Positions 3,360 to 44,097 of a DNA stretch of 44,753 nucleotides are shown here, piece after piece. The stretch is taken from NCBI GenBank assembly GCA_048885185.1, contig JBHLQC010000001.1, positions 1 through 44,753 on the forward strand. Direction: 5' to 3'. The DNA is from Candidatus Odinarchaeota archaeon. GTDB lineage: Archaea; Asgardarchaeota; Hermodarchaeia; Hermodarchaeales; Hermodarchaeaceae. Within the stretch, counting starts at the first letter, position 1. The number at the start of each line of letters is the position of its first letter. Made by a program: the position numbers and the translations under genes. The notes beneath the pieces were generated by a model. It did not search any database. It had not been told where the DNA came from and saw only the letters and a program-made list of their open reading frames with translations.

Positions 3360-3528
3360 TATCTTATTCGGATATGACGGTGACTCTTATGCGTTTGGGC
3401 ATAACCAGCTACATCTCACTATTTAGACTCACTAAAAATGAGAACAAGTGAACTTCCTCCGATTGGGAAAAGGCTTTAAAGTTTAATACTTGTCAAATCA
3501 GCCTATCACATGCAGGTGAATCCGTTAG

Positions 3529-4506: not shown

Positions 4507-5168
4507 AAGAGATATTGACCTAGTGTTGCTAGCCACCGACTAATGTCACGACCAGCACGAATTTTTGATTCTTCATCTCCGTAACTGGTGGCGATAGGAA
4601 CTTCAGAAATCAGAAATCCTGCTCGTTGCGCATCGATGAGAATTTCAGTCTCGGCAGCGAACCCATTATTACGAACAGGGATTGTTTCTAAAACCCTCCT
4701 TTTGAAGGCGCGATACCCAGATTGTGAATCTGTAACGGGAACTTTGAAAATCACTCTGAGAACGGTGGTTGTGATAAGATTACTTAACTTTCGAGCGAAG
4801 GGCATATCTTCTGATTGCGTTTGGTAACGTGATCCAACAATGATGTCGTAACCTTGTTTGATTTTATCAAGGAACCGTGGGATAGAATGGGGGTTATGTT
4901 GTAGATCGCCATCAAGTGTGATTGTGACATCATATTGCTTTTTTATGGTATAATTAAAACCGGTCCGTAATGCTGCTCCTTTTCCAAGATTCGTTGGATG
5001 CCTAAGCACTGTTGCACCGTTAGCTTCAGCTATCTTTCCAGTGTTATCAGTACTACCATCATCTACTACAACAACATGTGTACAATACTTCTGCGCAATT
5101 GTTATCACTTGATCAATGGCACGGGATTCTTGATAGGCGGGAATAACACAACAGACCTTCATATACAC
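4473..5168 (-). CDS. Family 2 glycosyltransferase, dolichyl-phosphate hexose synthase-like (DPM1/AglD-type)
   Basis: 231 aa with CVIPAYQES...VVVVDDGSTDNTG...LRHPTNLGKGAALRTGF...TLDGDLQH, a classic GT2 DxD fold. Its 3' end overlaps the convergent gene by 34 nt. Confidence 0.85.
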   Translation of the reverse strand: MYMKVCCVIPAYQESRAIDQVITIAQKYCTHVVVVDDGSTDNTGKIAEANGATVLRHPTNLGKGAALRTGFNYTIKKQYDVTITLDGDLQHNPHSIPRFLDKIKQGYDIIVGSRYQTQSEDMPFARKLSNLITTTVLRVIFKVPVTDSQSGYRAFKRRVLETIPVRNNGFAAETEILIDAQRAGFLISEVPIATSYGDEESKIRAGRDISRWLATLGQYLFYRPRFLSQNE

Positions 5169-5228
5169 CAGCGTTTTCTAATGATGTGTAGAGAGTGGAG
5201 TAAGTAATCCTGAAAATGAAAAAGCTTA

Positions 5229-5507
5229 CTATTCGGATGAAAGTTGAGTATCTGTTGCTTTTGTGACTGTGGTTGGTTGGTTCGCACAAATATCTACAAA
5301 TTCACCATAAACATCGACTGGTTCTGTTAAAGAGGTAATGGCTATTGTGGCTTGAACATCACAGTTTCCACAATGAATTGTCGCTTGACCAATATTTCGG
5401 TTCATCTCAACACGGACAGCATTACGTCCACATTTAGGACAATTGAAAATTGAAGGAATTGTTCGGATAGGACGTCGGGGAGTGGTTTTTCTTCGTCGTC
5501 GACCCAT
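5229..5507 (-). CDS. elf1: Transcription elongation factor 1 (Elf1) homologue, zinc ribbon
   Basis: 92 aa with a basic N-terminus (MGRRRRKTTPRRP), a CPKCG...CGNCD zinc ribbon, and SLTEPVDVYGEFVD matching the eukaryotic Elf1 block LTEPIDVYSEWID. Confidence 0.85.
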   Translation of the reverse strand: MGRRRRKTTPRRPIRTIPSIFNCPKCGRNAVRVEMNRNIGQATIHCGNCDVQATIAITSLTEPVDVYGEFVDICANQPTTVTKATDTQLSSE

Positions 5508-5570
5508 TTGATTAACCTCATTAGTTGTAATACAGCACGCTATATAATTCTCGGGATTATTAGTACGACT

Positions 5571-7310: not shown

Positions 7311-7412
7311 GCTTGAAAGCAGCCTCCCTGGTTAGATAAGATAATACCACAGGTTTCTACAAACAATGTTTTAAAAACATCCCTTCGTTACTCGAATAAG
7401 AGGCGCCTTAGT

Positions 7413-10226
7413 GTGGTTGAAGATATATTTAGTTTGCTGGATTCCCGGCTTTATGAGGAGCTTGTAAAGCAGGGATTTCAGACTCCAACACCAATACAAG
7501 TCCGTAGTATTCCACGGATACTTAGTGGTGAGTCCGTCTTACTGATTGCACCAACAGGGCATGGGAAAACAGAAGCGGCTTTTTTTCCCCTGATTCACCG
7601 CTTACTTGCATCTTCAAACCCCGTTGAAGGCGTTCAGATCTTGTGGATTACACCGCTTCGTGCCCTAAATAGAGATATTCTGAGACGATTGGTTCTCATC
7701 GCTCAACAACTTCAAATCAGTGTGGAAGTTCGTCATGGTGACACCCCATCCTCAACACGACGAAAACAGACTTTGAAACCACCTCAACTTTTCATTATCA
7801 CACCAGAAACCCTTCAGGCACTCTTAGCAGGGAAACGAATTCGAGAACACTTGCGAAATGTTCAGGGTGTGGTGATTGACGAAATTCATGAACTCGCGGC
7901 GAGTAAACGCGGAGTTCAATTAATGGTAGCCTTAGAAAGATTACGTGAGTTAACTGGATTATCCTTTCAACGAATTGGATTATCTGCCACAGTTGGCAAT
8001 CCAGAAGAAATCGGAGCATTCATGAGTGGTGGAGAAAATGTCGTAATTATTGAATCGCCTGCAAGAAAGGATTTTCATTTTTCCATTGAATATTGTCCAT
8101 TTTCTTACAAGGAATCTGATGAATCTCCTCTTGATGGTCCTGTTCGTAGGATATGGGAATTGGTTAGTCAACATACCTCAACTCTGATTTTTAGTAATGA
8201 ACGCCAGACAGCAGAAGCACTTGCCTTAAGATTAGCGAAACTTCATGGAGGAGATTCCGGAGTCCACCATGGATCACTCTCGCGCGAAGCCCGAGTTGAA
8301 GCTGAAAGGAAATTCAAAATGGGGACTGTACCCTATCTAGTTTGTACCTCATCTTTGGAACTAGGATTAGATATTGGTTCTGTGGATTTAGTAATTCAAT
8401 TCGGCTCGCCACGTCAGGTAGTTCGGCTATTGCAACGTGTCGGGCGATCAGGACACCGTTTAGACCGACGGTCTAAAGGCGTAATGATAACTACACGGTT
8501 TGATGATATCTGTGAAAGTTTAGTAGTAGCTCATCAATCTCTTAAGGGCCAGTTAGAAGTCCCGCCCATTCATAATAACGCGCTTGATATTGTTGCTCAT
8601 CAACTGGTTGGTCTGGCAATCGAATACAAAACCTTGTCATTTCCACAGGCATTTGATATAATAAAGCGGTCAACACCATATCAAGGACTTGAGCAGGATA
8701 CTTTCAATCAAATAGTGGGTTTTCTTCAGAAGGAGGGACTGCTAGCCCGTGATGATGTCATTTTAAGACCTCGACGAAAATCTTATGCCTATTACTTTGA
8801 AAATCTCTCAGTAATTCCTGACACACCTCATCACCGTGTTGTCAATGTTGCCACAAGCAGGCCTGTCGGTCGTTTGGATACTGGATTTGCAGAGGAATTT
8901 GGCCACACCGGTAATATTCTAGTTTTGCGTGGTCGACCATGGGAAGTTGTTAAGCAAGATGAAGAAAACGTATTCGTGACGCCTATTAACCAAACAAAGG
9001 GACGTATTCCTCGTTGGAGTGGAGAGCTAATACCGGTCTCGGAAAATGTTGTTAAAGCAGTTGCTGATCTTTGGATGTATATTGCAGAAAACGTCACTCA
9101 ACCCACCAATCTTGAGTTTGAAATTGCTGTTGATGAGCAAGCTAAAGAAGTAATGCTGAAAACCATCTCAAAACAGCAACAAGAAGAATTCATACCAGAT
9201 AAATCTACGATATTTATTGAAATAGGTCACGAGTTGGTGGTCATTCATTCATGTTACGGAACTCGAGTCAACGAGACGTTAGGCAGAATTCTGGCGGCTC
9301 TATTGACTTCTCAGCTAGGAATGGAAATCGCCTTTCATGCAGATCAATTTCGGATTCTGTTCCGATTTGAGCGAGGAGGTGGTCATCCAATTGGTGAGGC
9401 GATTTATGAAGGTTTACAATCACTTGACCCCGAGCATATCGTTGACCTATTGGAAATGATTTTGTTACGATCACCCTATTTTGCACGACGCTTTCTGCAT
9501 ATCGCTAGAAGATTTGGAGTCATTTCTCATGAAGCAAAACTTCGGAGCACTCAACTTCTTCGAATGATGCAATATTTTACGGAAACGCCCTTAATTGATG
9601 AGGCACTCCACGAATTTTACACTGACAAGCTAGATATTGAAAACACCCAAAGAATCGTAAATGCAATCCAAACAGGTGAAATCATCGTAAAGCGACTCTA
9701 CCAGAAACGACCGTCACCTTTTGCCCGTCAAATTCTAGCGCGATTTGGTGAATTTCTCGAACCTGAAATCCCTGAATCCTACATTCTTGAACAAACCAAA
9801 AATCGACTGTTGAACCGAAAAGTCCGATTAGTTTGTCTCCACTGTGGACAATGGGCAAGTGTCCGGACAATTAAACATTTGAAAGAGCACCCACAGTGCA
9901 AAAAATGTAAATCACGATTGATTGCAGGTGTTTTTCCCACCGATGAGCTTTTAGAGCAAGCTATTCGTCGCCACCGCGCTGGTATGAAACTCACTCCTGA
10001 AGAACAAAAGGCGTTACGGAAAGGACGAGAAAACGCTAATGTGGTTTTAAATTACGGAAAGCCAGCGCTGATTGCGATGGCGGGTCGTGGAATAGGACCG
10101 ACTGTCGTTAAACGAATTATGGCAGGAAGTCATGACCGACCTGAAAAAGAATTTTATCTTCTCATTTTAGAGAACGAAAAGCAGTTTATCAGAACACGGG
10201 AGTGGTGGACCGAACCTAAAATATAA
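7413..10226 (+). CDS. lhr: Lhr-type ATP-dependent DEAD/DEAH-box helicase
   Basis: 937 aa with motif I APTGHGKTEAA, motif II VVIDEIHEL, SAT, and motif VI QRVGRSGHR. The long C-terminal extension carries a CLHCG...CKKCKSR zinc ribbon, as in large archaeal Lhr helicases. Confidence 0.85.
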   Translation: MVEDIFSLLDSRLYEELVKQGFQTPTPIQVRSIPRILSGESVLLIAPTGHGKTEAAFFPLIHRLLASSNPVEGVQILWITPLRALNRDILRRLVLIAQQLQISVEVRHGDTPSSTRRKQTLKPPQLFIITPETLQALLAGKRIREHLRNVQGVVIDEIHELAASKRGVQLMVALERLRELTGLSFQRIGLSATVGNPEEIGAFMSGGENVVIIESPARKDFHFSIEYCPFSYKESDESPLDGPVRRIWELVSQHTSTLIFSNERQTAEALALRLAKLHGGDSGVHHGSLSREARVEAERKFKMGTVPYLVCTSSLELGLDIGSVDLVIQFGSPRQVVRLLQRVGRSGHRLDRRSKGVMITTRFDDICESLVVAHQSLKGQLEVPPIHNNALDIVAHQLVGLAIEYKTLSFPQAFDIIKRSTPYQGLEQDTFNQIVGFLQKEGLLARDDVILRPRRKSYAYYFENLSVIPDTPHHRVVNVATSRPVGRLDTGFAEEFGHTGNILVLRGRPWEVVKQDEENVFVTPINQTKGRIPRWSGELIPVSENVVKAVADLWMYIAENVTQPTNLEFEIAVDEQAKEVMLKTISKQQQEEFIPDKSTIFIEIGHELVVIHSCYGTRVNETLGRILAALLTSQLGMEIAFHADQFRILFRFERGGGHPIGEAIYEGLQSLDPEHIVDLLEMILLRSPYFARRFLHIARRFGVISHEAKLRSTQLLRMMQYFTETPLIDEALHEFYTDKLDIENTQRIVNAIQTGEIIVKRLYQKRPSPFARQILARFGEFLEPEIPESYILEQTKNRLLNRKVRLVCLHCGQWASVRTIKHLKEHPQCKKCKSRLIAGVFPTDELLEQAIRRHRAGMKLTPEEQKALRKGRENANVVLNYGKPALIAMAGRGIGPTVVKRIMAGSHDRPEKEFYLLILENEKQFIRTREWWTEPKI

Positions 10227-31898: not shown

Positions 31899-33632
31899 GT
31901 GGATGAGTTGACCATTTCTCAGGTTAATTCCAATTCAATTTGGTCCCAGTTTCGGGTGTTACAGGAACGAATTGCAGCTTTAGTTAATGTAAAACCTTTA
32001 CCTCGAGTTCGTGATCGAATTACTCAATTACAATTTGCCCCAAAACGGTTGAAATTTGTAGAACCTCGATTTGGTACCACTGAAATACCCTCCGAGAAAG
32101 GATCTCGAAGTGGATGGACGGTTACTCTTTCAGAAGACCTCAAAATAGATTCTCCTCATATTTTATCATGGGTTTTGTGGCGAGAAGCATTTCTCAGCTA
32201 TCTTGTGCCTAATATACGTCAAATTCCGGAAACCGCGGACTTGGGCCTTTATGCAGGTTTAAAATTCGGTGAATATAGCATAGAAGAAAAGAAACTTCTT
32301 TCAGAATTGTGGAGTCGTGTGTCCCCAACACAATACTATTTGTATTACAACTATGATGCGCCTTTCGGGTTTCCCATATTCGACCAAGTGGTTAGCGACT
32401 CCTTCCTTCATCGCGTCCTACTCTGGCTGAACTCTATGCGCCTAAGCAGCTTCCAACCGATCTCTTCCTCCACCTATACCGAGGCCTTAGAGAGATGGAT
32501 GCAGGAAACCCATAACCCCTTAACAAAAACCGAAGTACGAATTCTCAACGCACTTTGTACAATTGAACAGTTCTCTCAGAGCCAATTAGCCAAGAAATTA
32601 AATCTTAGCGATTCCGCAATCAGCCAAGCTCTCAACAGATTATCTCGAAGACACCTGCTCAGGATTTTTTCATTCATCAATCTTCCTTTAATGGGACTAA
32701 TTCCTTTAGAAGTTAAACTTCAAGTTATAGATAGGATACAAAAAAGACGAATTACCACATTACTATCAAAAATCCAATATATTGACTTCATCATCGATAC
32801 CAACCAATTCTTGATATCTAGATTCGTAATACCTCACAATCGTGTAGACGAATTTAAGAACTGGATTTTCAAATTTGCATCTAAAGAAAATCTACCTACA
32901 ATCGATGTGTACCAGGATATGTGTCAACTTTTCCATTGGAATTTTAATACGTATATTCCAGAAAAGGGGTGGCCCACCGATTTTACAGTTCAACTAAATC
33001 ATTTTCAATCATCAATACTTGGAAATCAAGATTCCAGTGAACCACCACTGAAAAGCCACAGCTACTCCTATGATCTCCTCCTTAATGACCAACAAACCTT
33101 CCCAATTAAGCTACGTCAAGAAGATTTTACTTACTTCAGACGCTCATCAGAAATCTTTCGAACAACAGAACGTGTAACACCAAGGCCATCACAAGAGGTT
33201 CGCAAAGCTGGTCTCTTAGAAACAACTCACATGAGCTATCGAAGACGTGTACAAAAACTCGAAAATCAACAAATCAGCATCATGGGAGGATTTTGGTTAC
33301 AGCACATTAATCTCGATACAATGGTTCATCTCCTTATCTTTGAACCTTGGGAGACATCCGAGCAAATAATGAGAGCATTGCAATTATTCCCATTTATTAA
33401 TGGAAGAATCTTAGAAAACGGAAATGGATATGTCCTCATCCAGATACCAAATCAAAATGCTGTTGATACACTTTCTACACTGAGAGAAACCATCGTTGGA
33501 ATGGGGATAGACGTACACATCAGTATTAATCCTGCATGGCAGACCTTAACGGACTTTGAACCACCCTTAAGGTCTTCGAATTATGATTTTAAAAACAGCG
33601 AATGGAAATGGGATGCTCACACTTTACCATAA
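31899..33632 (+). CDS. Uncharacterised 577-aa protein, tandem paralogue of 29732-31474
   Basis: Blocks shared with the paralogue: EPRFG, VLWREAFL, PE..DLGLY, LW..VSP.Q, F.IFD, ALERW. The HTH is EVRILNALCTIEQFSQSQLAKKLNLSDSAISQALNRLSRRHLLRI. It also shares MSYRRRVQKLE and the C-terminal NYDFKNSEWKW. The start codon is GTG. Confidence 0.6.
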   Translation: MDELTISQVNSNSIWSQFRVLQERIAALVNVKPLPRVRDRITQLQFAPKRLKFVEPRFGTTEIPSEKGSRSGWTVTLSEDLKIDSPHILSWVLWREAFLSYLVPNIRQIPETADLGLYAGLKFGEYSIEEKKLLSELWSRVSPTQYYLYYNYDAPFGFPIFDQVVSDSFLHRVLLWLNSMRLSSFQPISSSTYTEALERWMQETHNPLTKTEVRILNALCTIEQFSQSQLAKKLNLSDSAISQALNRLSRRHLLRIFSFINLPLMGLIPLEVKLQVIDRIQKRRITTLLSKIQYIDFIIDTNQFLISRFVIPHNRVDEFKNWIFKFASKENLPTIDVYQDMCQLFHWNFNTYIPEKGWPTDFTVQLNHFQSSILGNQDSSEPPLKSHSYSYDLLLNDQQTFPIKLRQEDFTYFRRSSEIFRTTERVTPRPSQEVRKAGLLETTHMSYRRRVQKLENQQISIMGGFWLQHINLDTMVHLLIFEPWETSEQIMRALQLFPFINGRILENGNGYVLIQIPNQNAVDTLSTLRETIVGMGIDVHISINPAWQTLTDFEPPLRSSNYDFKNSEWKWDAHTLP

Positions 33633-33933: not shown

Positions 33934-35478
33934 TTGTCTGTAGAAGACTCTGATGTTCAATCTGCTATTACGAAACTGCTGAGAGCGGGATTTCAAATCA
34001 GCCCAGCAACATTGCAAATGCTTCAAAAAGTGTCTAACCCCCACCAAATTGTTGAGAAATTTCTCACCTCTGACGTTGTACACCCAACTGACACACCCGT
34101 TCTCGAACCAAGCCATTTTGACATCCCTCAGGAGAAACCATCAGATTCAATCCAAGAAGACCTGCCACAAGAACCCCAAATCCCTCAACTTACTCATCCT
34201 AGATTCCAAGCAGAGGGTGTAAAAGCGAGAATAAAAATCCGTAAGGATCCAACACCTCAATTACAGAGCAAAGGAACTGTAGAAGATTTCGTGTCAAATT
34301 TTCAGGATCGCTATTACCGTTTACGAGATATCATCTCACAACGGGTGGACGGAAAGGGAGTTATTGACATAAATGAGGTGGCAGAGGGAAATAACACTCA
34401 AGAAAAGGGAAAGACTCCCACTGTAAAAATTGTAGGATTAGTCACCAATAAAACTCCAACAAAAAGTGGAAATATTGCGCTCGAATTGGAAGATCCATCT
34501 GGAAGTATCTCTGTAATTGTTCAGCAACGTGATCCAAGCTTGTTTTCAAAGGCGCGTCTTGTGTTACTCGACCAAGCCTTATGCGTTGAGGGAGCTTTGG
34601 TTAGTTCAGAAATGATGATTGCTAATGATCTATTCTTACCAGATATTCCATCAAACAGAAGAAATAATCGAGCGACAGAACCGGTCAGTGCCCTCCTGCT
34701 ATCAGATATTCATTTTGGAAGCCGGAATTTTCTTGAAAAAATATTTCAACGAGTACTTGATTGGCTTCAAGGGAAAGAAGGTGATGAGGAACACGTTGAA
34801 CTGGCTAGCACTGTAAAATATATCGTCATTAATGGTGATCTTGTCGACGGTATAGGAGTCTACCCAAATCAAATTGCAGAAATTACACTCTTTGATCTTG
34901 ATAGTCAATTTGTCGGGCTAACCAAACTTCTTCAACAAATCCCCTCTCACATACATCTCTTAATTGCTCCAGGAAATCATGATGGAGTTCGATTGGCGAT
35001 TCCCCGACCTGCAATCGAAGACCGCTTTTTAGCTCCGTTAAAAGATTCGGGATTACAAGTAGCGTCTCTCGGGTGTCCTTCACACGTGAGCTTGCATGAT
35101 GTGAACTTGTTGATCTACCATGGTGATAGCCTCGTCGATATAATGGCTGCACTTTCAAAACCGGAGTTGGAAGCAAGTTTTGCAGCAATGAGAGAGATGC
35201 TCCGAGGACGCCATCTTGCTCCCATATATGGGAAGAGTACAACAATCGTTGCTGAACCACGAGATTGGCTCGTCATTGATGAGGTACCAGATATTCTTCA
35301 TTGTGGTCATGTCCATGTAACTAGCGTTGGCAGTTACCGAAAAACCCTGATTCTGAATTCAGGAACGTTTCAAAGCCAAACGGATTATCAACGATTGATA
35401 GGTATAGAACCTACACCCGGAATTGTTCCTCTTGTTAATTTGCAAACCCTCAATGTGAAAACATTGAATTTTACTTAG
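33934..35478 (+). CDS. polB: DNA polymerase II (PolD) small subunit DP1
   Basis: 514 aa with an OB-fold segment (VKIVGLVTNKTPTKSGNIALELEDPSG) and calcineurin-like phosphoesterase motifs (LSDIHFGS, NGDLVDG, PGNHD, YHGD, CGHVH). The start codon is TTG. Confidence 0.9.
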   Translation: MSVEDSDVQSAITKLLRAGFQISPATLQMLQKVSNPHQIVEKFLTSDVVHPTDTPVLEPSHFDIPQEKPSDSIQEDLPQEPQIPQLTHPRFQAEGVKARIKIRKDPTPQLQSKGTVEDFVSNFQDRYYRLRDIISQRVDGKGVIDINEVAEGNNTQEKGKTPTVKIVGLVTNKTPTKSGNIALELEDPSGSISVIVQQRDPSLFSKARLVLLDQALCVEGALVSSEMMIANDLFLPDIPSNRRNNRATEPVSALLLSDIHFGSRNFLEKIFQRVLDWLQGKEGDEEHVELASTVKYIVINGDLVDGIGVYPNQIAEITLFDLDSQFVGLTKLLQQIPSHIHLLIAPGNHDGVRLAIPRPAIEDRFLAPLKDSGLQVASLGCPSHVSLHDVNLLIYHGDSLVDIMAALSKPELEASFAAMREMLRGRHLAPIYGKSTTIVAEPRDWLVIDEVPDILHCGHVHVTSVGSYRKTLILNSGTFQSQTDYQRLIGIEPTPGIVPLVNLQTLNVKTLNFT

Positions 35479-36053
35479 AGTTGTTCGAATTCCCAAGATT
35501 CTAGCTGCAACGACTGGAGAACTCGAATAGCTTCATCCTTTTCTAAAATCAAGAATAGTTTCGCCACGTGTTTGCAGAATCGATGAAGTAAACTAACTTT
35601 TCGCCAGTCAGGGCAATTATGAGCAATCCGTCGGCTAGCTTCATCAAGGATGAGAACATAATCTTGAGATCCATGAACCGTAGCCTCCACTTTCAACGGA
35701 TTTTGAGAAACACGGATGAATTCAATAGCCTGATCGTTCATTCCCACTGCACGAGATAAACGGGATGAGCTAACAAATAATCGAAGATAATCACCCAAAT
35801 TTGTCACTGCTGTCTGAGTGGGGATTTCGGTATCAACCACCATTTTTTGAGACAACTTAACAAAACCATTTTCAATACTTATCTGCCCTTCAGATTGAAG
35901 GCGTTCAATGAGTTTAAGTGCCTCCGAAGGAGCCATTTTCCGTATATCAAAAGAAAGAAAAAATACTAACTGCTGAATTGGTACTTGATCTTTACCGAGT
36001 GCACGAAATGCATAATCCACAAGGCGAACTGGATTACGTGGTACACTAAACAT
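35475..36053 (-). CDS. Conserved-looking hypothetical protein with a C-terminal SWIM-like (HxC...CxH) zinc-finger motif
   Basis: 192 aa. The C-terminal HNCPDWRKVSLLHRFCKHV resembles SWIM CSCPDF...CKH with the first Cys replaced by His. It is positioned between DP1 and orc1/cdc6. Confidence 0.5.
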   Translation of the reverse strand: MFSVPRNPVRLVDYAFRALGKDQVPIQQLVFFLSFDIRKMAPSEALKLIERLQSEGQISIENGFVKLSQKMVVDTEIPTQTAVTNLGDYLRLFVSSSRLSRAVGMNDQAIEFIRVSQNPLKVEATVHGSQDYVLILDEASRRIAHNCPDWRKVSLLHRFCKHVAKLFLILEKDEAIRVLQSLQLESWEFEQL

Positions 36054-36075
36054 ACTGACAACCTTTTACGCGGTT

Positions 36076-37374
36076 CTATTTATCCGGGGTTGCTGGAACA
36101 TAACTTGAGAGAGCCTTAATACGACTATCTCGTTCTAATACATCTGCAATCATTGTTTTCGGGACACTTAACCGGATAATTTTGGTTCGTCCATATCGTC
36201 CTTTACTTACAACTTTAGCATTAACTACTCCAATAGCATCCAAATCATTGATGAGATCACTAACCCGACGCTGGGTTAAAGGATCCATACCTAACTGTGA
36301 GCAAAAGTCTCCGTACACATCTTGTACCTCTCCTGTAACTGGATGTGGATGTTTGTGACGTTCTAATACATACACAGCATAAAGGACAAGTTTCTGTTGG
36401 ACAGGTAATGTCCGTAGTACTTCAAGAACAGTATCACGTTCAATGCTTAAACGTGCCTTTTCAACATGATCAACTTTTACCTCTTTACTTCCCTCACGTT
36501 CAGCAATTTCTACTGCTACACGAAATAGATCAAGAGCCCGTCGTGCGTCACCTTCTTCACGTGCAGCCAAGGCAGCACATAGGTTGATTACTCCTGGTTC
36601 TTCTAAGATACCATTTTTCAGTCCATGAGAACTTCGACGCCGAAGAATATCTTGTAGTTGTAATGCAGTGTAAGGATGAAAAATGACCTTCTCCTCACTT
36701 AAGCTACTCAACACCCGAGGATCAAGATACTCAGGGAAGCGAAGATCATTGGAGATTCCGATTAAACTGACACGAGCACTCGTAAGATCATAATTAATTC
36801 GAGTCAACTTATAGAGCGTGTCATCACCGCTCTTCAAAACTAAACGGTCGATTTCGTCGAGTACAATAATGGTTAAGAGATCTTGGCTTTCTAGCAACTC
36901 GATCAGGCGTGAATGAACTTCATCAGTTGGCAGCCCTGTAAACGGAACTTTTTGACCCAACTCCGCACAGATGCGCGCCAATACACGATAATCTGTATCC
37001 ACATTCCGGCAATTCAAATATACAGCTTTGAAGGGTAACTGGAGTTCACCAAACTTAGTAGTTAATTCCCGGAGAACATACCGAGTCACTGCTGTTTTTC
37101 CAGTTCCTGGTTTACCATAGACAAAAACATTCGATGGGCGACTCCCCTTCAAGCCCGTCGCTAATATACCTCCGATTTGCGTAATCTGTTCTTCACGATG
37201 GGGAAGGTCATCTGGAACATAAGAATGCCAAAGAACTTTACGATCACGAATAAGAGTTGGACCAGTACTAAAACGTTCGAAAATCCTGTCCAAAGGCCGT
37301 GGGTCATCCATGTGATAGCTGTCCTCCAGGAGGCTCCCATAGGAAATACTAGCGTTTCTTTTGGAAGTGCACAC
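36076..37374 (-). CDS. cdc6: Orc1/Cdc6 replication initiator
   Basis: It has Walker A VYGKPGTGKTA, Walker B IIVLDEIDRL, the sensor block GDARRALDLFRVA, and a C-terminal winged helix. The track start is GTG 37374. ATG 37311 (MDDPRPLDRIF), with GGAGG 12 nt upstream, is more plausible. Confidence 0.95.
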   Translation of the reverse strand: MCTSKRNASISYGSLLEDSYHMDDPRPLDRIFERFSTGPTLIRDRKVLWHSYVPDDLPHREEQITQIGGILATGLKGSRPSNVFVYGKPGTGKTAVTRYVLRELTTKFGELQLPFKAVYLNCRNVDTDYRVLARICAELGQKVPFTGLPTDEVHSRLIELLESQDLLTIIVLDEIDRLVLKSGDDTLYKLTRINYDLTSARVSLIGISNDLRFPEYLDPRVLSSLSEEKVIFHPYTALQLQDILRRRSSHGLKNGILEEPGVINLCAALAAREEGDARRALDLFRVAVEIAEREGSKEVKVDHVEKARLSIERDTVLEVLRTLPVQQKLVLYAVYVLERHKHPHPVTGEVQDVYGDFCSQLGMDPLTQRRVSDLINDLDAIGVVNAKVVSKGRYGRTKIIRLSVPKTMIADVLERDSRIKALSSYVPATPDK

Positions 37375-37556
37375 ACCTCCAATATTAGGGTTTCGCAGAA
37401 ATAGTTCTTATCAACTATTCCTTTCAATAAACAAAGTTTAATTTGTTCACAATTGGCGCGTTACTTGTGAACTTCTATTATCATAAATTGATTTAGAGCT
37501 CGTTTTTCTCGTAAAAACAGCCAAATTTAGTATATTTTCTAATCAACAAACACTCA

Positions 37557-37577
37557 CCCCTTTATTTCCACTGGAAC
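37557..37577 (-). promoter_or_regulatory. Origin recognition box ORB1
   Basis: The plus strand reads cccctttatttccactggaac, which is GTTCCAGTGGAAATAAAGGGG on the minus strand. This matches my memory of the archaeal ORB (TTCCAGTGGAAA dyad plus G-string). Confidence 0.8.
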
Positions 37578-37882
37578 TATCCAATTAAGGCTTAAATTCT
37601 TAGAAATTGTAATGAACCCGTGAAGAAACTGTGAACACCTTCTAACTATGGAGAAATTCCTTGAAATAGAAAAAGAAAACCGGAGATAACGTATTTTACA
37701 TAACTAACCAAAACAATCAGAAGAACGCTTTAAATGATAATAGAACTGAAGCAAGTAGAACCAAATAATTAATCAGTGATGCAACACACTCTCTCTTCAC
37801 ACCGTCACACTTTTATTACTGTGAACACGCCTCTCTAGTGGGGACATGGAGAGCCAGCTAGTCACCAGTGGGTGACCCTCCC

Positions 37883-38338
37883 ATGAAAAAACGGAAACAA
37901 AAGATCACCATCGAAGGACTTACCATCGAAGGAAAAACTTGTGACGTAACTATAACTTTTACAGATGGATTACCCTCTTCCATCACCGAATCTTTGGTCA
38001 CAGCTCTCAGTCAATCCGGCACAGAGGTTCCGGCTCACGAGCCCACAACTGAGATACAATCCCTTGATGATGTGGATTCCTGGACTGTGTTTCAAAAAGT
38101 CCGATATATTACTCTTCGTCACTGTCGTCACGGCTGGTTCACTTCTAAAGATATCCAAGAACTCTATGAAAGATCCTTCCACCCACCTCTACGACTAGCC
38201 ACGGCCTCACAATACCTCAAAAGAATGCATGACAATGGTACTCTTACACGTCGTGGATCAGCTGCCCAACGCGAGTATAGAGTTAACATCGAAGACTTAA
38301 CAGAAGAAATTGCTGCTATCCTGGCTACAAAAGTCTAA
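37883..38338 (+). CDS. Small winged-helix protein encoded inside the origin
   Basis: 151 aa counted from ATG 37883; the track ORF starts at GTG 37868. The C-terminal WFTSKDIQELYE...LATASQYLKRMHDNGTLTRRGSAAQREYRV is wHTH-like. A GGTGA Shine-Dalgarno-like sequence lies 7 nt upstream of the ATG. Confidence 0.6.
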   Translation: MKKRKQKITIEGLTIEGKTCDVTITFTDGLPSSITESLVTALSQSGTEVPAHEPTTEIQSLDDVDSWTVFQKVRYITLRHCRHGWFTSKDIQELYERSFHPPLRLATASQYLKRMHDNGTLTRRGSAAQREYRVNIEDLTEEIAAILATKV

Positions 38339-38470
38339 AACAGATTTTTCAATTCCTTTGTCATATGAATAAAATTATGTACTATAGTTATAAACTTTTT
38401 AAGATTGATCAATTGTAGGTAAATTAACAGGGCCTCAGAGATCATTAGAAAACGGAAAATAAATGTCACT

Positions 38471-38490
38471 CCCCTTTATTTCCACTGGAA
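38471..38490 (-). promoter_or_regulatory. Origin recognition box ORB2
   Basis: The sequence cccctttatttccactggaa is identical over 20 nt to ORB1 and has the same orientation. Confidence 0.8.
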
Positions 38491-38674
38491 GTCGAAGGAC
38501 AAAAAAAGTTTGGTCTTGTTTATATATAATTCGAAGAATCTTCCCCAGTTGTTTTCTATTATTGTTATATTAATACTTTACCTTCTCTAACACGTTTTCT
38601 TTAATAGTATAGAAGCTGTTTTTGCGCATTTTCCACTTATTTGAAAGGGTAACAAAAAATCCGACTAAAAAGAA
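38491..38674. other. Putative duplex unwinding element between inverted ORB2 and ORB3
   Basis: This is a 184-nt non-coding stretch with about 29% G+C by my hand count (54/184). It contains tatatata and A/T runs and is bracketed by inverted ORBs. Confidence 0.6.
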
Positions 38675-38695
38675 GTTCCAGTGGAAATTAAGGGG
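38675..38695 (+). promoter_or_regulatory. Origin recognition box ORB3 (inverted relative to ORB1/2)
   Basis: The plus strand reads gttccagtggaaattaagggg. Confidence 0.8.
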
Positions 38696-38708
38696 TATAC
38701 CTAGTCTC

Positions 38709-39002
38709 CTAAGCTACCAGTTGATAGTATACAGAAGGCCTACCACGTTTACCGTTTCGTTCAACATACTTCTCAACAGTTCCGGAGATCAGTAAATTCA
38801 TTAAAGTATCATAGACAGTTGTTCTTGGAATCCCTGTCCTGACGGTAATTTCTCCACGTGTTAATGCACCTTGGTCTCGTAGTAGGCTAGTAATATGATT
38901 TTTGACATCGCCTACCTCAGGTGGACGAGTAGTTGTTCGGGTACGTTGTTTCGTTTTTTGGGTACTGTGGGATGTTCGTTGGGTGGTTCGGGTAGCAGCC
39001 AT
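38709..39002 (-). CDS. Small TrmB/MarR-like winged-helix protein with a basic T/R/Q-rich N-terminal tail, encoded inside the origin
   Basis: 97 aa. The tail is MAATRTTQRTSHSTQKTKQRTRTTTRPPE. The wHTH follows: LTRGEITVRTGIPRTTVYDTLMNLLISGTVEKYVERNGKRGRPSVYYQL. Confidence 0.65.
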   Translation of the reverse strand: MAATRTTQRTSHSTQKTKQRTRTTTRPPEVGDVKNHITSLLRDQGALTRGEITVRTGIPRTTVYDTLMNLLISGTVEKYVERNGKRGRPSVYYQLVA

Positions 39003-39057
39003 AATACCACAACTCTACGTCTAGATAATTTACGGTTATTTATATTAGTTGTGGATA

Positions 39058-39071
39058 ATTTCCACTGGAAC
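39058..39071 (-). promoter_or_regulatory. Mini-ORB4 (dyad core only, no G-string)
   Basis: The plus strand reads atttccactggaac, which is GTTCCAGTGGAAAT on the minus strand. TATCCAC follows in place of a G-run. Confidence 0.6.
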
Positions 39072-39139
39072 TTAATAAATTCAATGAAATAAATGAGTTT
39101 CAGAAAGTAGAAAAAAAGCGAACAACTAATGAAAAATGC

Positions 39140-41464
39140 TTATTGTATCCTGGATCGAGCGACAAGGGCCTGACCCACTGATGTTCCTGCGTCACCGGGT
39201 GGAACTTTGTTATGAACTAGAAACGTAAGACCTTGGTCTTCAATAGTTGTTCGTATAGTTCTTGTAAGAATCTTATTATCTGCAACTCCTCCGGAAAACC
39301 CAATTTTCGATATTCCTTGTTTTTGAGCTGCTTGAGTAGCAATTTCAGCCAGTGCATATCCAAGTACGCGATGTGCAGCATATGCCAGATCGGGAGCATT
39401 GAAGTCGTATTGAAGGTCCATAATTTGCTTAATGAAATTGCTAGTGTCTAAGATTGTTAAGTTACCTTGTTTTTTCTTGGGAATCTGTAGTTTTATTTTG
39501 GAGTTGGCTGAGCCCGTATTTGCAAAAGATTCGAATCGGATGGCAGGCTCACCTTCGTATGTGCGTGTATGACATACTTGGAAGAGTGCAGAAAGTGAAT
39601 CTAGTACTCTTCCTGTACTTGATGTCAGCGGAGTATTGATTTTCTGGTATGCTTGTTTGAGTGCTATTCTCAGCTCTGATGTACCCTGTGGTAAGGCGTT
39701 TTTTGCAATTCCTTTGAAATGATCATATAATTGGTCCTGTGAATAATGCCTTGACAGAATACCGATTAGCATACGGAGTGGGTAATGAGCAGCAAGATCT
39801 CCACCGGGCATGAGCTGTTGTTCCAGATGACCTACACGCTGGTACTTCTGTGCGTTACCTACAAGGATTTCGCCCCCCCAAATTGTATCATCAGGACCAT
39901 ACCCTGCACCATCGCAACAAATAGCGACGATTTCTTCATCCGCTTTGAGTTGGTGATCAGCTAATAGTGCCGCAAGGTGTGCATGGTGGTGTTGTACCCG
40001 GAAAAGTGGTATTTGGTGTTCATCAGATATTTTTTCGCCATATTGAGTTGTGAGAAAATCAGGATGTAAATCGCAGGCAATAGCATCAAAGGTATTTACT
40101 CGAAGAAGTTGTTGGAGATGTGTGAGGCTTTCTTGTAGAAACTGCATTGTCTCTACTGTATCAATATCACCAATGTGCTGTGTTAGATAGATTCGTTTAT
40201 TGTGATAGATTGCTCCAGTGTTTTTTTCCAACGCTCCAAGAGCGAGAATAGGAGGACCAATATTGGCGGTATCAATAGGTTCAGGAGTATAGCCTCTTGA
40301 ACGACGGACAATAAGTGCTTGGTCATAAATTGGAATGATAACCGAGTCATCACATCGTTGGTATATTGTACGGTCATGTGTGAGGAAGTAGTCAGCCATT
40401 TTCATGAATTGTTCTTGGAAGGTTGTAGCGTGGATGAGGGTCGGTAATCCCGCAGGATTTGCGCTAGTCATCACTAATGCAAGATCATCAAGACCTTCAA
40501 ATAATCGTAAATAGATTCCTGAATATGGAAGCATTACGCCAATTGTATTCAATCCAGGTGCTAGTGCTGTGGATAGTGGGAAAGGAGATTTTTGATCCAA
40601 GACTACTATCGGTCGGCGCCAAGAGATCAAGAGCTTTTCTTCATTCTGATTTACTTTTGCATACTGTCTGGTAGCTTGGAGATCTTTTGACATTATGGCC
40701 AAGGGTTTATTGGGTTTTTTCCGTAATTGGCGAAGTCGTTGAGTTGGTTCTTCAAGACTAGCTCTAACTGCAAGATGTATACCTCCTAAGCCCTTTACGG
40801 CAATAATAGCTCCTTCATTCAGAAGCTTCACTGTTTCTTTGAAAACGTCATCGACAATAACGGGTTCTCCACCAGATCCTAACAGTGAAAATTTGGGGCC
40901 ACAGATGGGGCAACAAATGGTTTGGGCGTTATATCTGCGGTCTAATGGATTATCGAACTCTTTTGTGCAATCTTTGCAGAGGGGAAACTCATTCATGGTT
41001 GTGCGTTCTCGGTCATAGGGTGTGTTAGTGATTGTTGTATAGCGTGGACCACAAATAGCACAACAGGTCATTGGATATTGATAATGTCTCGATTTCGGAC
41101 TAGCCATGTCTTTGATACAATCTTCGCACACAGCGATATCAGCTGGAATTACTGAACCACCTGCCTTCTGTTCGTCTTTAGAAATTCGAATCTGAAAGTT
41201 TGTATATTTCCCGGTTGGGGTTCCCCATATTGTGCGGATGCTGTCAATGACGGCAAGATATGGTTTATCTTTTTCAATGGATTCAATGAATTCAATAATT
41301 CTCTTCTTAGCGCCTTCTACAACTATCAAAACAGCAGAATTTCCAGTATTCAAAACGTATCCTAACAAACTACGCTGTGTGGCTTGAGCATAGATAAATG
41401 GACGGAAGCCTATTCCCTGTACAACGCCGACGACACGAATTTCTGCTTGTTGAATGTTAGTCAT
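39140..41464 (-). CDS. hypF: [NiFe]-hydrogenase maturation carbamoyltransferase HypF
   Basis: It has an acylphosphatase domain (IRVVGVVQGIGFRPFIY), two CxxC zinc-finger pairs (CEDCIKD...CAICGPRYT; CKDCTKE...CPICGPKFS), a YrdC-like domain and a Kae1-like domain. The track ORF extends to 41584, but that extension overlaps the divergent gene. ATG 41464 (MTNIQQAEIRV) fits HypF N-termini. Confidence 0.9.
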   Translation of the reverse strand: MTNIQQAEIRVVGVVQGIGFRPFIYAQATQRSLLGYVLNTGNSAVLIVVEGAKKRIIEFIESIEKDKPYLAVIDSIRTIWGTPTGKYTNFQIRISKDEQKAGGSVIPADIAVCEDCIKDMASPKSRHYQYPMTCCAICGPRYTTITNTPYDRERTTMNEFPLCKDCTKEFDNPLDRRYNAQTICCPICGPKFSLLGSGGEPVIVDDVFKETVKLLNEGAIIAVKGLGGIHLAVRASLEEPTQRLRQLRKKPNKPLAIMSKDLQATRQYAKVNQNEEKLLISWRRPIVVLDQKSPFPLSTALAPGLNTIGVMLPYSGIYLRLFEGLDDLALVMTSANPAGLPTLIHATTFQEQFMKMADYFLTHDRTIYQRCDDSVIIPIYDQALIVRRSRGYTPEPIDTANIGPPILALGALEKNTGAIYHNKRIYLTQHIGDIDTVETMQFLQESLTHLQQLLRVNTFDAIACDLHPDFLTTQYGEKISDEHQIPLFRVQHHHAHLAALLADHQLKADEEIVAICCDGAGYGPDDTIWGGEILVGNAQKYQRVGHLEQQLMPGGDLAAHYPLRMLIGILSRHYSQDQLYDHFKGIAKNALPQGTSELRIALKQAYQKINTPLTSSTGRVLDSLSALFQVCHTRTYEGEPAIRFESFANTGSANSKIKLQIPKKKQGNLTILDTSNFIKQIMDLQYDFNAPDLAYAAHRVLGYALAEIATQAAQKQGISKIGFSGGVADNKILTRTIRTTIEDQGLTFLVHNKVPPGDAGTSVGQALVARSRIQ

Positions 41465-41550
41465 CGGCGTCAACTCCCTTTGAATCGACAGAAGCGAAGT
41501 ATTAATTCTTTTGGAGTTATCATCAAGTAGTATATGCTTTTGGTTAGTGT

Positions 41551-42150
41551 TTGATGATGAGTGAATTTCGTGTCCCAACGCCAAAGGAACTACAAGAACT
41601 CCGAAAGAAAGTTGGTCTCACGCAAGAGGAACTTGCTGCACGTGTTGGGATTAGTCAGTCTTTAGTTGCACGAATTGAAAAGGGCCAGGTGAATCCAAGC
41701 ATTGTAACACTGAAACGAATTCTTAGTGCAATCGAAGATCAAGAGCAGGTTTCTCCAAGTTTACGCAAGCTGTTGCAGTGGAAAGGTCAAACTACAAAGA
41801 TGCAACAATTAATCGGGGTCAGCCCCGATGACAAAGTACGACGTGCAGTATTACTGATGAGGCGTCATGGAATATCACAACTTCCTGTCATTAAAAAGAA
41901 CAAATCTATTGGGTGTATTAGTGAAGGTACTATAATTCGAAAATTAATGGCCATGGATTCACAGAAAGTCTTCTCATTATCAGTAAATGAAATAATGGAA
42001 GAACCTTGTCCATCAATTGATATTAACGAGAGTGTTGAACTTGCGTTCTCTAAAATCGCTTCCGGCAGTGAGGCATTATTGATTGAGGATCAAGGACGTC
42101 CTGTGGGAATCGTCACTAAGATTGATATAATTGCATTTACACGGATATAG
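41551..42150 (+). CDS. XRE-type HTH plus CBS-pair domain regulator
   Basis: 199 aa with the HTH LTQEELAARVGISQSLVARIEKGQVNPS, followed by two CBS motifs (HGISQLPVIK..., ALLIEDQGRPVGIVTKIDI). Confidence 0.8.
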   Translation: MMMSEFRVPTPKELQELRKKVGLTQEELAARVGISQSLVARIEKGQVNPSIVTLKRILSAIEDQEQVSPSLRKLLQWKGQTTKMQQLIGVSPDDKVRRAVLLMRRHGISQLPVIKKNKSIGCISEGTIIRKLMAMDSQKVFSLSVNEIMEEPCPSIDINESVELAFSKIASGSEALLIEDQGRPVGIVTKIDIIAFTRI

Positions 42151-42265
42151 CACTTGACAACATAATAATTTCAATGAATTCAATAAATTTATCTAGTTTT
42201 ATGGTTTTAATACTATCAATAATCCTTATAATGCAGAACCTACATTTCTCCAAAATAACTGAGGC

Positions 42266-43579
42266 GTGATGAAACTGAGTGAGCTGGATCGATTAGTCGA
42301 ACGAACACAAAAATTCGATCAACAAATGCTTTCAAAATGGGGATTCAAAACAGAGAGAATTGAGCTATTTGGTATTGATTCTGATGAGCTATATGTAGTT
42401 CCAGAGCACGAAGCCCTAGCAATAAAGAGAGCCGTTAACTATCTGCGTAATCAAACAGCTAGTGTGGTCGTATCTGGTCCTTTGGGCGCGGGAAAAACCA
42501 CATTTTTAGAAATGATCCAGCAATCATTGAATCGTCTACCAAATATTCGGGCCATAAGACTTGAAGGTGTTAGTTCGGCTGATGCTCTAATTGATGACCT
42601 GGTTCATGCAAACATTGGAGAACAAACCGTTCGTGATTTTTTAATTGACAGAGTTGGTGTTCGTGTCGTTCGCAGTGGTTCAGTTGCTAAACGGCTTTCC
42701 CGTTTACTATTGGCATTAAGAACCGATGCAGAAGAAAATGGAACCTCATATGTTTTCTTAATCGATGAATTTCGACAACTAGAACGCCAAAGACCTGATA
42801 ATCGTGTACGGATTGTAGATACGCTATTACGAATGGTAAACGATAAAACAAGAGATGGACGTCGATACGTTGTACTAGCCCTAGCAGTAATTACTCGTGT
42901 TGGCGAGAGTGCTATTAAGACTCTTGAAATTCTATCATCAGTTGGAGAAACCTTAGGGCATGGAACCAAGTCTGCTATTCGAAGACGGTTCGTTGAAATC
43001 TATGATATGCGTCGAATGAATAAATCAAGTGCAATGAAAGTCATGCTCTGGAGAATAGCCTACCTCAAAGGTGCAATGGATAAACTGCAATCGAATTCAG
43101 AGGATAGTTTAGATTTTGAATCAGATACAGTGAAAGAGTTACTGTATCCCTTTACGGTTGAAGCACTAGAGGGTATTTTCAGTTATTCTGGTGGGAATCC
43201 CGGGATTATGCTTGAGCTATTATTACGCTGTCTTCAGGATGCAGTTCGTGGTGCTGAAGTTCTTGTAAACGATGGTTACACGCTAGATAATGTTCTATCA
43301 GCATATCAAATAGACTTCAACTATGTTCAACGGTTTGTACAAAAAGAGGTAAAACGGGCAAGAGCAGAATTTTCCTCATTTCAAACTGAGCTTCTGAGTT
43401 TCCTTTCTATTGCACGATCACTTGATGAAATTGAAGACTGGCTACAAATTCATGATAGCTCTTGGGAAAACGTATTGGAGGATTTCGATCTATTTGAAAA
43501 ACAAGGTCTTATCTACAGTCCTGAAGCAGGACGCATTCAGGCCACTGAACTATGGACTAAGGGTTCCACATTTGTGTGA
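42266..43579 (+). CDS. Divergent AAA+ P-loop ATPase (Orc1/Cdc6- or ExeA/TniB-like) with a putative C-terminal winged helix
   Basis: 437 aa with Walker A VVSGPLGAGKTT, Walker B YVFLIDEF, and a sensor-2-like SGGNPGIMLELL. The C-terminus reads LEDFDLFEKQGLIYSPEAGRIQ. The likely start is ATG 42269. Confidence 0.6.
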   Translation: MMKLSELDRLVERTQKFDQQMLSKWGFKTERIELFGIDSDELYVVPEHEALAIKRAVNYLRNQTASVVVSGPLGAGKTTFLEMIQQSLNRLPNIRAIRLEGVSSADALIDDLVHANIGEQTVRDFLIDRVGVRVVRSGSVAKRLSRLLLALRTDAEENGTSYVFLIDEFRQLERQRPDNRVRIVDTLLRMVNDKTRDGRRYVVLALAVITRVGESAIKTLEILSSVGETLGHGTKSAIRRRFVEIYDMRRMNKSSAMKVMLWRIAYLKGAMDKLQSNSEDSLDFESDTVKELLYPFTVEALEGIFSYSGGNPGIMLELLLRCLQDAVRGAEVLVNDGYTLDNVLSAYQIDFNYVQRFVQKEVKRARAEFSSFQTELLSFLSIARSLDEIEDWLQIHDSSWENVLEDFDLFEKQGLIYSPEAGRIQATELWTKGSTFV

Positions 43580-43591
43580 GGTGAATAAAAC

Positions 43592-43960
43592 ATGTCGGCT
43601 ACGGATCTGATAAGAGAACGAATGAAGAAGGAAAAAGAAACTAAACCCAAAAAAGAATCAAAAAAACAAGCACAAGAAACAACTGACATCGAGTTAGACG
43701 AATTATCTTCAAGAGTCGGTGATTCAAGTCTTAAGCGCTTACGCATTGAAAGTGAATACGAAGGACGCAGAACTATAAGTGCAAGCATTCCAGCGTGGAT
43801 CAAAGCCGCCTTAGATTATGTGGCAATTGCTGCAACAAAATCCGGAGAAGGCAAGTATGGTGGGTTTGGTGGTAAATCGCGGTTTATCGCAGAGGCACTC
43901 GAAGAGAAAATAAAATCAGATTTTCCTGAGGTCTTCGAAAAGCTTCAACGCAAATCGTAA
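43592..43960 (+). CDS. Ribbon-helix-helix (CopG/MetJ-like) DNA-binding protein with a lysine-rich N-terminal tail
   Basis: 122 aa. The segment RTISASIPAWIKAALDYVA...SRFIAEALEEKI fits a beta-strand/helix/helix RHH pattern. A GAGGTGA Shine-Dalgarno-like sequence lies 8 nt upstream. The gene starts 12 nt after the ATPase stop. Confidence 0.55.
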   Translation: MSATDLIRERMKKEKETKPKKESKKQAQETTDIELDELSSRVGDSSLKRLRIESEYEGRRTISASIPAWIKAALDYVAIAATKSGEGKYGGFGGKSRFIAEALEEKIKSDFPEVFEKLQRKS

Positions 43961-44097
43961 AGAGTATAAACATAAATATTTTCAATAAAATTAATGAAAT
44001 TATTGAATTCATTCCCTTCAGTTATTTTTCTTTAGTTTCACTTTTAGGGAATCTGCTGCTTATGTTTAATTAGTGGGTGAGTTCCGGAGGCAGCAAA

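Follow-up and report, generated by a model that had tools for sequence, protein, structure and literature searches.

A candidate Orc1-1-dependent replication origin of ORB type, with two embedded winged-helix genes, in a Hermodarchaeota-type Asgard archaeon

To our knowledge, experimental mapping has yet to be reported for any Asgard replication origin. In other archaea the initiator Orc1 recognizes origin recognition boxes (ORBs): its winged helix binds the dyad, and the initiator-specific motif (ISM) of its AAA+ domain binds the G-string side (structures 2qby and 2v1u). The oriC1 of Sulfolobus contains three ORBs, of which ORB2 and ORB3 are inverted around an AT-rich duplex-unwinding element (DUE) and are both essential in vivo (PMC12141716). 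Where boxes of opposite polarity flank a DUE, the winged-helix and lid domains are predicted to face each other across it (PMC6742236). The Cdc6-bound ORBs of Pyrococcus carry the core ATTTCCACTGGAA (PMC1904270), and a pan-archaeal ORB consensus, CTTCCAGTGGAAACGAAAGGGGT, has been compiled (Pelve et al. 2013, PMC4153887 Table 2). The origins of Atabeyarchaeia and Freyarchaeia (PMC11291895) and of Odinarchaeum LCB_4 (PMC9246712) were placed by cumulative GC skew alone, with no ORBs described, and no ORB-level description of Asgard origins was found in the literature searched with the phrase "origin recognition box". The window analyzed here is a 44,753-nt stretch of DNA, the entire contig C1 (JBHLQC010000001.1) of a 1.70-Mb metagenome-assembled genome (MAG) of Candidatus Odinarchaeota archaeon (197 contigs, 84% complete), and its nearest Orc1 relatives come from MAGs labeled Hermodarchaeota, Promethearchaeota or (mis)labeled Thorarchaeota. 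In all likelihood, this Hermodarchaeota-type Asgard archaeon starts replication of its chromosome in the segment at 37.4-39.1 kb, which would be an Orc1-1-dependent origin homologous to oriC1, with Orc1 binding and initiation predicted from its sequence. The elements on which this proposal is built are the following, from left to right.

36076-37374, minus strand: orc1/cdc6, gene of the Orc1-1 orthologue by homology.
37556-37578, minus strand: ORB1, a full ORB, with the 20-mer CCCCTTTATTTCCACTGGAA at 37557-37576; G-strand AGTTCCAGTGGAAATAAAGGGGT, 22-nt form GTTCCAGTGGAAATAAAGGGGT.
37883-38338, plus strand: gene of a 151-aa orphan protein, between ORB1 and ORB2; substitution rates at codon positions 1/2/3 of 0.22/0.13/0.51.
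38470-38492, minus strand: ORB2, a full ORB, with a 20-mer identical to that of ORB1 at 38471-38490; G-strand CTTCCAGTGGAAATAAAGGGGAG, CTTCCAGTGGAAATAAAGGGGA.
38493-38673, no strand: AT-rich spacer, candidate DUE, 29.7% G+C.
38674-38696, plus strand: ORB3, a full ORB, with gttccagtggaaattaagggg at 38675-38695; AGTTCCAGTGGAAATTAAGGGGT, G-strand reading GTTCCAGTGGAAATTAAGGGGT.
38709-39002, minus strand: gene of a 97-aa winged-helix protein, between ORB3 and ORB4; substitution rates at codon positions 1/2/3 of 0.21/0.13/0.50.
39056-39073, minus strand: ORB4, a mini-ORB, with ATTTCCACTGGAACT at 39058-39072; G-strand reading GTTCCAGTGGAAATTATCCACA.

Three of the four boxes carry GGGG at 3 nt from the dyad. 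ORB3 is an inverted copy with a single mismatch, located in the short linker between dyad and G-string, and ORB4 has the dyad only, without a G-string. Compared with the sequences in PMC4153887 and PMC1904270, the boxes match the archaeal ORB consensus (dyad TCCAGTGGAAA plus G-string). Allowing up to two mismatches, the 13-mer TTCCAGTGGAAAT was matched 13 times in the window, against 2.3 ± 1.5 times in dinucleotide-preserving shuffles, none of which (0 of 100) reached 13. Thus, what an earlier sequence-only reading of this DNA had claimed for the repeats was borne out, namely four ORB elements at these positions with an exact 20-mer shared by ORB1 and ORB2, an inverted ORB3 and a dyad-only ORB4, a repeat beyond chance, and a dyad plus G-string of ORB architecture, since four exact 13-mers, three of them with a G-string, fit published ORBs. 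The exact 13-mer occurs in four copies in the 1.70-Mb genome, all of them within 37564-39070, and this is the sole cluster with exact copies; the other close pairs found genome-wide consist of sites with one or two mismatches each and are at chance level. In the genomes of ten relatives (2.1-2.7 Mb), the 12-mer TTCCAGTGGAAA was likewise present in three or four copies at the homologous locus and in zero or one copy elsewhere. The genome encodes three Orc1 proteins in all, the other two being Cdc6_C paralogues on contigs C63 (32% identity) and C4 (25% identity), and no ORB-like repeat cluster was found near either of them, nor any ORB-like site inside dp1 on this contig. A palindromic ORB-like site, TTCCATTGGAA, lies at 32929-32943 inside the gene of a 577-aa regulator, 5 kb left of the proposed origin; it has two mismatches to the 13-mer on both strands and could be a stray mini-ORB or a chance match.

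The product of the adjacent gene was compared with proteins of known structure. Its matches to Orc1-1 of S. solfataricus (2qby_A, E = 1.6e-111) and ORC1 of A. pernix (2v1u_A, E = 1.2e-102), both crystallized on ORB DNA, its score against the NCBIfam equivalog NF001625 (527 bits, cut-off 501) and its Pfam domains (AAA, Cdc6_lid and Cdc6_C) clearly mark it as an Orc1-1 orthologue. The recognition helix (TQRRVSD) and the wing (GRYG.TK) are near-identical to those of the Orc1 crystallized on ORB DNA, the winged-helix segment reading TQRRVSDLINDLD...GRYGRTK here and TQRRVSDIINELD...GRYGKTK in Sulfolobus. The start of this gene is probably the ATG of Met22 at 37311 and not the listed GTG at 37374. 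Among relatives, the substitutions in 37300-37374 are spread evenly over codon positions, so this segment looks non-coding, and several tblastn matches begin at residues 15-22. With a start at 37311, the conserved block at 37340-37399 would be left as a 5' leader or promoter.

These elements of Orc1 also bear on the idea that the repeats are sites of some other protein (an embedded winged-helix protein being one possibility) or mere chance repeats. Two DNA-binding proteins are indeed encoded within the cluster, and the binding of Orc1 to it is predicted. Nevertheless, the boxes match base for base the consensus that is bound by Orc1/Cdc6 in Sulfolobus, Aeropyrum and Pyrococcus, the DNA-reading elements of the neighboring Orc1 are conserved, ORB clusters occur also where the 97-aa homologue is absent, and chance is excluded by the shuffles together with the genome-wide count. 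We therefore regard a non-Orc1 or fortuitous nature of the boxes as very unlikely.

ORB2 and ORB3 are the left and right arms of an inverted pair, with both dyads pointing toward the spacer and both G-strings pointing outward. With the winged helix on the dyad, as in the structures 2qby and 2v1u, this polarity is the canonical one. The interval between them (38491-38674/5, overlapping the box edges) measures 184-185 nt at 29.7% G+C, in agreement with the AT-rich 184 nt across which the two boxes had been said to face each other, and the core made up of ORB2, spacer and ORB3 comprises 225 bp. In 11 of 11 genomes, the length of the interval is either 184 or 185 nt and its G+C content 29-33%. Several blocks within the spacer are conserved: TCGAAGAA is found twice, at 38492, where it abuts ORB2, and at 38530, 38 nt further in; TAT.AATA.TTTAC, at about 38566-38580, resembles a TATA box; and TGCGCATTT is at 38623. 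By analogy with ucm of Sulfolobus, which is bound by UBP, these blocks could be sites for an accessory factor. Neither TCGAAGAA nor TGCGCATTT was seen in the spacers of other Asgard families. No Rfam family matched in the origin region, and the single-strand fold of the region mirrors only the inverted repeat of ORB2 and ORB3.

The layout is also conserved among relatives. The same four boxes were found in 10-11 related MAGs of Hermodarchaeota, whose Orc1 proteins are 80-98% identical, with start-to-start spacings of about 914, 198 and 382 nt. Relative to the window sequence, 7-12% of box positions were substituted as compared with 44-63% in the immediate flanks, so that the boxes evolve 4-7 times more slowly; the rates were 0.117 for ORB1 (flanks 0.44-0.50), 0.087 for ORB2 (left flank 0.63), 0.087 for ORB3 and 0.067 for ORB4. 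In five other Asgard families, with Orc1 proteins 56-60% identical and two genomes that are single contigs of 2.8 Mb, three or four ORBs lie by the orthologous orc1, and four of the five have an AT-rich gap between a dyads-inward pair 170-200 nt apart. The comparison with ORB sets of related genomes that had been proposed as a check thus turned out in favor of the reading, the four-box layout being kept in about ten Hermodarchaeota MAGs and clusters being present in five other families. In one of these families (f12), which includes the two single-contig 2.8-Mb assemblies, the boxes form a compact triplet of alternating orientation, about 170 nt apart (L054, 7552-7905; L055, 7525-7886; L057, 8037-8395), in which just the dyads-inward gap is AT-rich (38-42% G+C, vs. 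44-56% in the other gap).

Based on homology with oriC1 of Sulfolobus, the following mechanism may be proposed. Monomers of Orc1-1 would occupy each ORB in a fixed polarity, the winged helix contacting the TTCCAGTGGAAAT dyad and the AAA+ ISM the G-string side, and the inversion of ORB2 and ORB3 would turn the winged-helix ends toward the AT-rich spacer of fixed length (184-185 bp). ATP-bound Orc1 would then recruit MCM hexamers onto the spacer, where the DNA would melt and replication would proceed in both directions. ORB1 and ORB4, which lie in or next to promoters, would most likely couple the occupancy of the initiator to transcription of orc1 and of the two small winged-helix genes.

The main rival to this proposal is that the boxes are only operators of Orc1, serving autoregulation of orc1 and control of the two small genes, while the origin itself is dormant or vestigial and replication starts from another site or depends on recombination. 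In favor of this, ORB1 is located in the promoter region between the divergent orc1 and 151-aa genes, and a TATA-like box adjoins ORB4. ORB2 and ORB3, on the other hand, are outside promoters, downstream of two convergent genes. The exact length of the spacer, its AT-richness and the dyads-inward polarity of the pair are kept across families and suit a helicase-loading site rather than an operator. In addition, no other ORB cluster was found in this genome or in the ten relatives, and none lies by the two Orc1 paralogues.

Skew and gene orientation were examined as further evidence on the same question. In the window, cumulative GC skew reaches a local minimum at 38-39 kb, as it does at the corresponding point on a 270-kb contig of a relative (G002:C22). 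The skew inflection that had been named as a check gave no replichore-scale signal on the 250-270-kb contigs of two relatives, and the operator explanation draws on this lack of a skew or gene-orientation signal centered on the locus. Several observations indeed weigh against an active origin here. The V of the skew is only local (about ±15-30 kb) and is weak in 10-kb bins on the 251-kb contig of the second relative (G005:C1). When G+C at third codon positions (GC3) was regressed on gene strand and side of the origin, the coefficient for side was about zero on both the 270- and the 251-kb contig. Genes to the left of the origin are, if anything, head-on to the outgoing fork. The AT-richest 100 nt nearby (38326-38425, 21% G+C) lie left of ORB2, outside the inverted pair. 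Moreover, Thermococcus and some other archaea keep ORB origins that are conserved but dispensable, according to two reports (PMC5663688, PMC11005403), and since the genome is only 84% complete, further origins are possible. Origin-independent replication is likewise documented in Thermococcales and haloarchaea (the same two reports; Hawkins 2013). A 2.81-Mb single-contig relative (G022), sampled in twenty pieces of 20 kb, gave only noise in the skew. Skew has been reported for Atabeyarchaeia and Freyarchaeia, and not for Heimdall-, Loki- or Odinarchaeia (PMC11291895); because several Asgard lineages are thus without it, its absence neither supports nor refutes an origin. On balance, boxes that act as operators beside a silent origin seem to us rather improbable.

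For the proposed oriC1 homologue, every sequence-level and comparative hallmark that was tested, apart from a skew switch at replichore scale, was found, namely the boxes, the inverted pair, the adjacent Orc1-1, the uniqueness of the cluster and its conservation, and in this sense the proposal is supported. The sequence-only reading had called the locus a canonical oriC. An ORB-type origin next to orc1 is what the evidence supports, but the word "canonical" undersells the layout, in which the boxes extend over 1.5 kb and are split by two genes.

The gene content of the contig bears on a different rival, namely that the origin and its initiator form a cassette from an integrated plasmid or virus instead of being the ancestral origin of the chromosome. 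Archaeal Orc1 genes and their cognate ORBs frequently reside on mobile elements, three Orc1 paralogues are present in this genome, and oriC2 and oriC3 of Sulfolobus have been proposed to be captured extrachromosomal replicons. Here, however, the Orc1-1 equivalog is next to the PolD subunit DP1, housekeeping and replisome genes fill the contig, and among the scanned open reading frames of the contig no integrase or viral family was matched. The locus is syntenic in the Hermodarchaeota relatives, the cluster of ORBs and orc1 recurs in five Asgard families, and the G+C content is typical of the genome (42.3% for the contig, 44.5% for the genome). A mobile-element provenance was rejected on gene content, and we consider it extremely doubtful. 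By its genes the contig is core chromosome, with PolD DP1 and DP2, RPA, Lhr helicase, A-type ATPase subunits A and B, GcvT, aRF1, a class-I tRNA synthetase and three tRNAs. The neighbors with assigned positions are listed below.

3-2657: PolD DP2.
5571-7310: RPA.
33934-35478, plus strand: PolD small subunit DP1 (Pfam DNA_pol_E_B, 4e-15, and Metallophos).
35475-36053, minus strand: DUF2240 protein of 192 aa, encoded co-directionally with orc1 and downstream of it (Pfam DUF2240, 24.8 bits, cut-off 22.3).
39140-41584: HypF.

At oriC1-type origins DP1 is a conserved neighbor of orc1, and it adjoins the orthologous gene at L054, L055, L057 and L058, four of the five loci from other Asgard families. 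Of the genes that had been named immediately left of the boxes, Orc1/Cdc6 and PolD DP1 were confirmed, whereas the label "SWIM-like" for the 192-aa protein is unsupported, because SWIM scored below its cut-off (E = 0.24, 11.4 bits against 19.6). Replication genes crowd onto this 45-kb contig, at 3-10226 and 33934-37374 (DP2, RPA, Lhr helicase, DP1 and Orc1), and an Orc-like orphan AAA+ gene lies at 42266-43579. At 39075-39100, 42162-42190 and 43954-44013, a unit of the type AATGAA / ATTCAATGAA was noticed to recur about every 9 nt in AT-rich arrays. These arrays adjoin the origin on its right and also flank promoters in the region of the Orc-like AAA+ gene, and the unit is modestly enriched in the window (17 occurrences vs. 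9.4 expected; 3 of 100 shuffles reach 17).

Two protein-coding genes, convergent on the spacer, are contained in the 1.5-kb region. The product of the shorter one is a TrmB/Lrs14-like winged helix whose N-terminal tail is basic and rich in Thr. It was matched by Pfam TrmB (8e-7) and by NCBIfam Lrs14 (1.4e-5, under its cut-off), and homologues are found at the origin in two other loci (L056 and L058). On the plus strand, the stop codon of this 97-aa gene follows ORB3 at a distance of 13 nt, which places ORB3 just downstream of the gene, and oligo-T runs are present on the strand of this gene just inside the spacer. At the other end of the gene, ORB4 is directly followed on the same strand by CCACAAC and by TAATATAAATA, the conserved TATA-like box of the 97-aa gene, and the segment 39000-39099 is the best-conserved non-coding block of the region.

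The 151-aa protein had no sequence match in Pfam, NCBIfam or PDB, and its homologues, in 59 clusters, are all named hypothetical. An AlphaFold2 (AF2) model predicts a C-terminal winged helix (pLDDT >90) behind an N-terminal beta-hairpin. An identity as a Cdt1/WhiP-like or other known initiator was considered and rejected: besides the lack of family matches, Foldseek returned just generic winged helices of the ArsR/MarR/PadR kind (best E = 7e-3). No paralogy was detectable between the two embedded winged-helix proteins.

A second class of boxes, of the type TGTGAAC/GTTCACA, lies between orc1 and the 151-aa gene, on both sides of ORB1. Two inverted pairs are conserved.

37444-37473, no strand: inverted TGTGAAC pair GTTCACAATTGGCGCGTTACTTGTGAAC, upstream of orc1; conservation 0.93 in a diverged spacer.
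37794-37828, no strand: inverted TGTGAAC-type pair around the TATA-like CTTTTATTA, about 55-65 nt upstream of the 151-aa start codon; conservation 0.90 across relatives.

A further box of this type is at 37630-37637. The motif TGTGAACA is not enriched window-wide, and just the local conserved cluster at 37444-37828 stands out. The pair at 37444-37473 is a putative operator for a second factor. The inverted pairs are probably bound by a protein other than Orc1, for which the 151-aa winged-helix protein would be the best candidate. Similar TGTGAA pairs occur upstream of distant members of the 151-aa family (L079, L080, L081 and L120).

A profile search collected 275 cluster representatives of the 151-aa family, mostly of 135-165 aa. 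Of 101 sampled Asgard genomes, 78 gave a match to the gene at E <= 1e-5, in 74 of them as a single copy; the weakest matches (E of about 1e-6 to 1e-7, mostly in family f9) are parts of larger open frames and are possibly not orthologous. Of 29 loci of the family, taken from about a dozen Asgard families, 23 had at least one ORB, with no more than one mismatch to the 12-mer, within 1.5 kb on either side, compared with a chance expectation of about 0.015 per locus, and most loci hold two to four boxes with G-strings. Distant members on metagenome contigs without orc1 nearby have ORB clusters in a long upstream gap (L084 and L086), and the family is found together with an ORB cluster also in two MAGs of Nitrososphaerota and one of Bathyarchaeota. 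The family thus tracks ORB clusters across two phyla. In some homologues the coding frame continues across one or two stop codons, which are TAA in family f14 and TGA in family f8 (G039:C6:60305-60712, G058:C286:16669-17079 and G017:C51:7235-7606; L105, L106 and L111). These could be pseudogenes, assembly errors or cases of stop-codon recoding, which is reported for some Asgard lineages (PMC9723677).

A tentative and somewhat doubtful extension of these observations is that the ORB origins of Asgard archaea and of part of Thermoproteota (Nitrososphaerota and Bathyarchaeota) carry an undescribed accessory module. It would consist of the single-copy orphan winged-helix protein of about 150 aa, whose gene stays by the ORB cluster even where orc1 has moved away, and of inverted boxes of the TGTGAAC type, to which the protein would presumably bind. 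The gene of this protein and the second small winged-helix gene would, in Hermodarchaeota, be transcribed convergently into the unwinding element. If the 151-aa protein acts at the origin, it would be a new player in the control of archaeal and possibly of pre-eukaryotic initiation.

As a candidate origin, the locus offers the whole lineage defined initiator sites and an unwinding spacer of fixed length, resolved to the base pair. In practical terms little is gained, as the design is what one expects of archaea. Of greater interest is a by-product, the conserved orphan winged-helix gene alongside ORB clusters in two phyla.

Among described systems, the likeness to oriC1 of Sulfolobus/Saccharolobus (Robinson 2004; PMC12141716), whose functional core is ORB3-DUE-ORB2, is found in the orthologous initiator, the adjacency of orc1-1, ORBs made of a dyad and a G-rich element, two direct and one inverted ORB with an AT-rich DUE between the inverted pair, and short conserved motifs in the spacer, whose presence is reminiscent of ucm. 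The two differ in that the inverted-pair core is 130 bp in Sulfolobus and 225 bp here, the spacing from dyad to G-string is shorter here, a fourth box without G-string is present, and the outer boxes are parted from the core by two protein-coding genes. With the oriC of Pyrococcus and Thermococcales, which combines 34-bp ORBs with 13-bp mini-ORBs, the locus shares an identical 13-bp core (ATTTCCACTGGAA), the mixture of full ORBs with a mini-ORB (the 13-bp form corresponding to ORB4), the neighborhood of orc1 and DP1 (cdc6-oriC-dp1), and an ORB cluster that is practically the sole one in the genome. In Pyrococcus, however, the G-string is 8 nt from the core instead of 3 nt, there are many mini-ORBs and a second cluster inside dp1, and the origin as described in PMC1904270 is without embedded genes, compared with two here. 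The origins of Methanomassiliicoccales, which belong to another phylum and are bioinformatic predictions as is the present one, are similar in the 22-nt form of the ORB (GTTCCAGTGGAAATAAAGGGGT) and in having paired inverted boxes by orc1/cdc6.1; ORB1 is identical to the 22-mer of M. luminyensis ORB2, GTTCCAGTGGAAATAA-AGGGGT (PMC4153887), whereas their pairs are 39-256 nt apart and downstream of orc1. As far as sequence layout goes, only the 225 bp of ORB2, spacer and ORB3 resemble the compact core of Sulfolobus. What is distinctive is the split 1.5-kb layout with embedded convergent winged-helix genes, the invariant spacer with its motifs, the TGTGAAC class of boxes and the orphan family.

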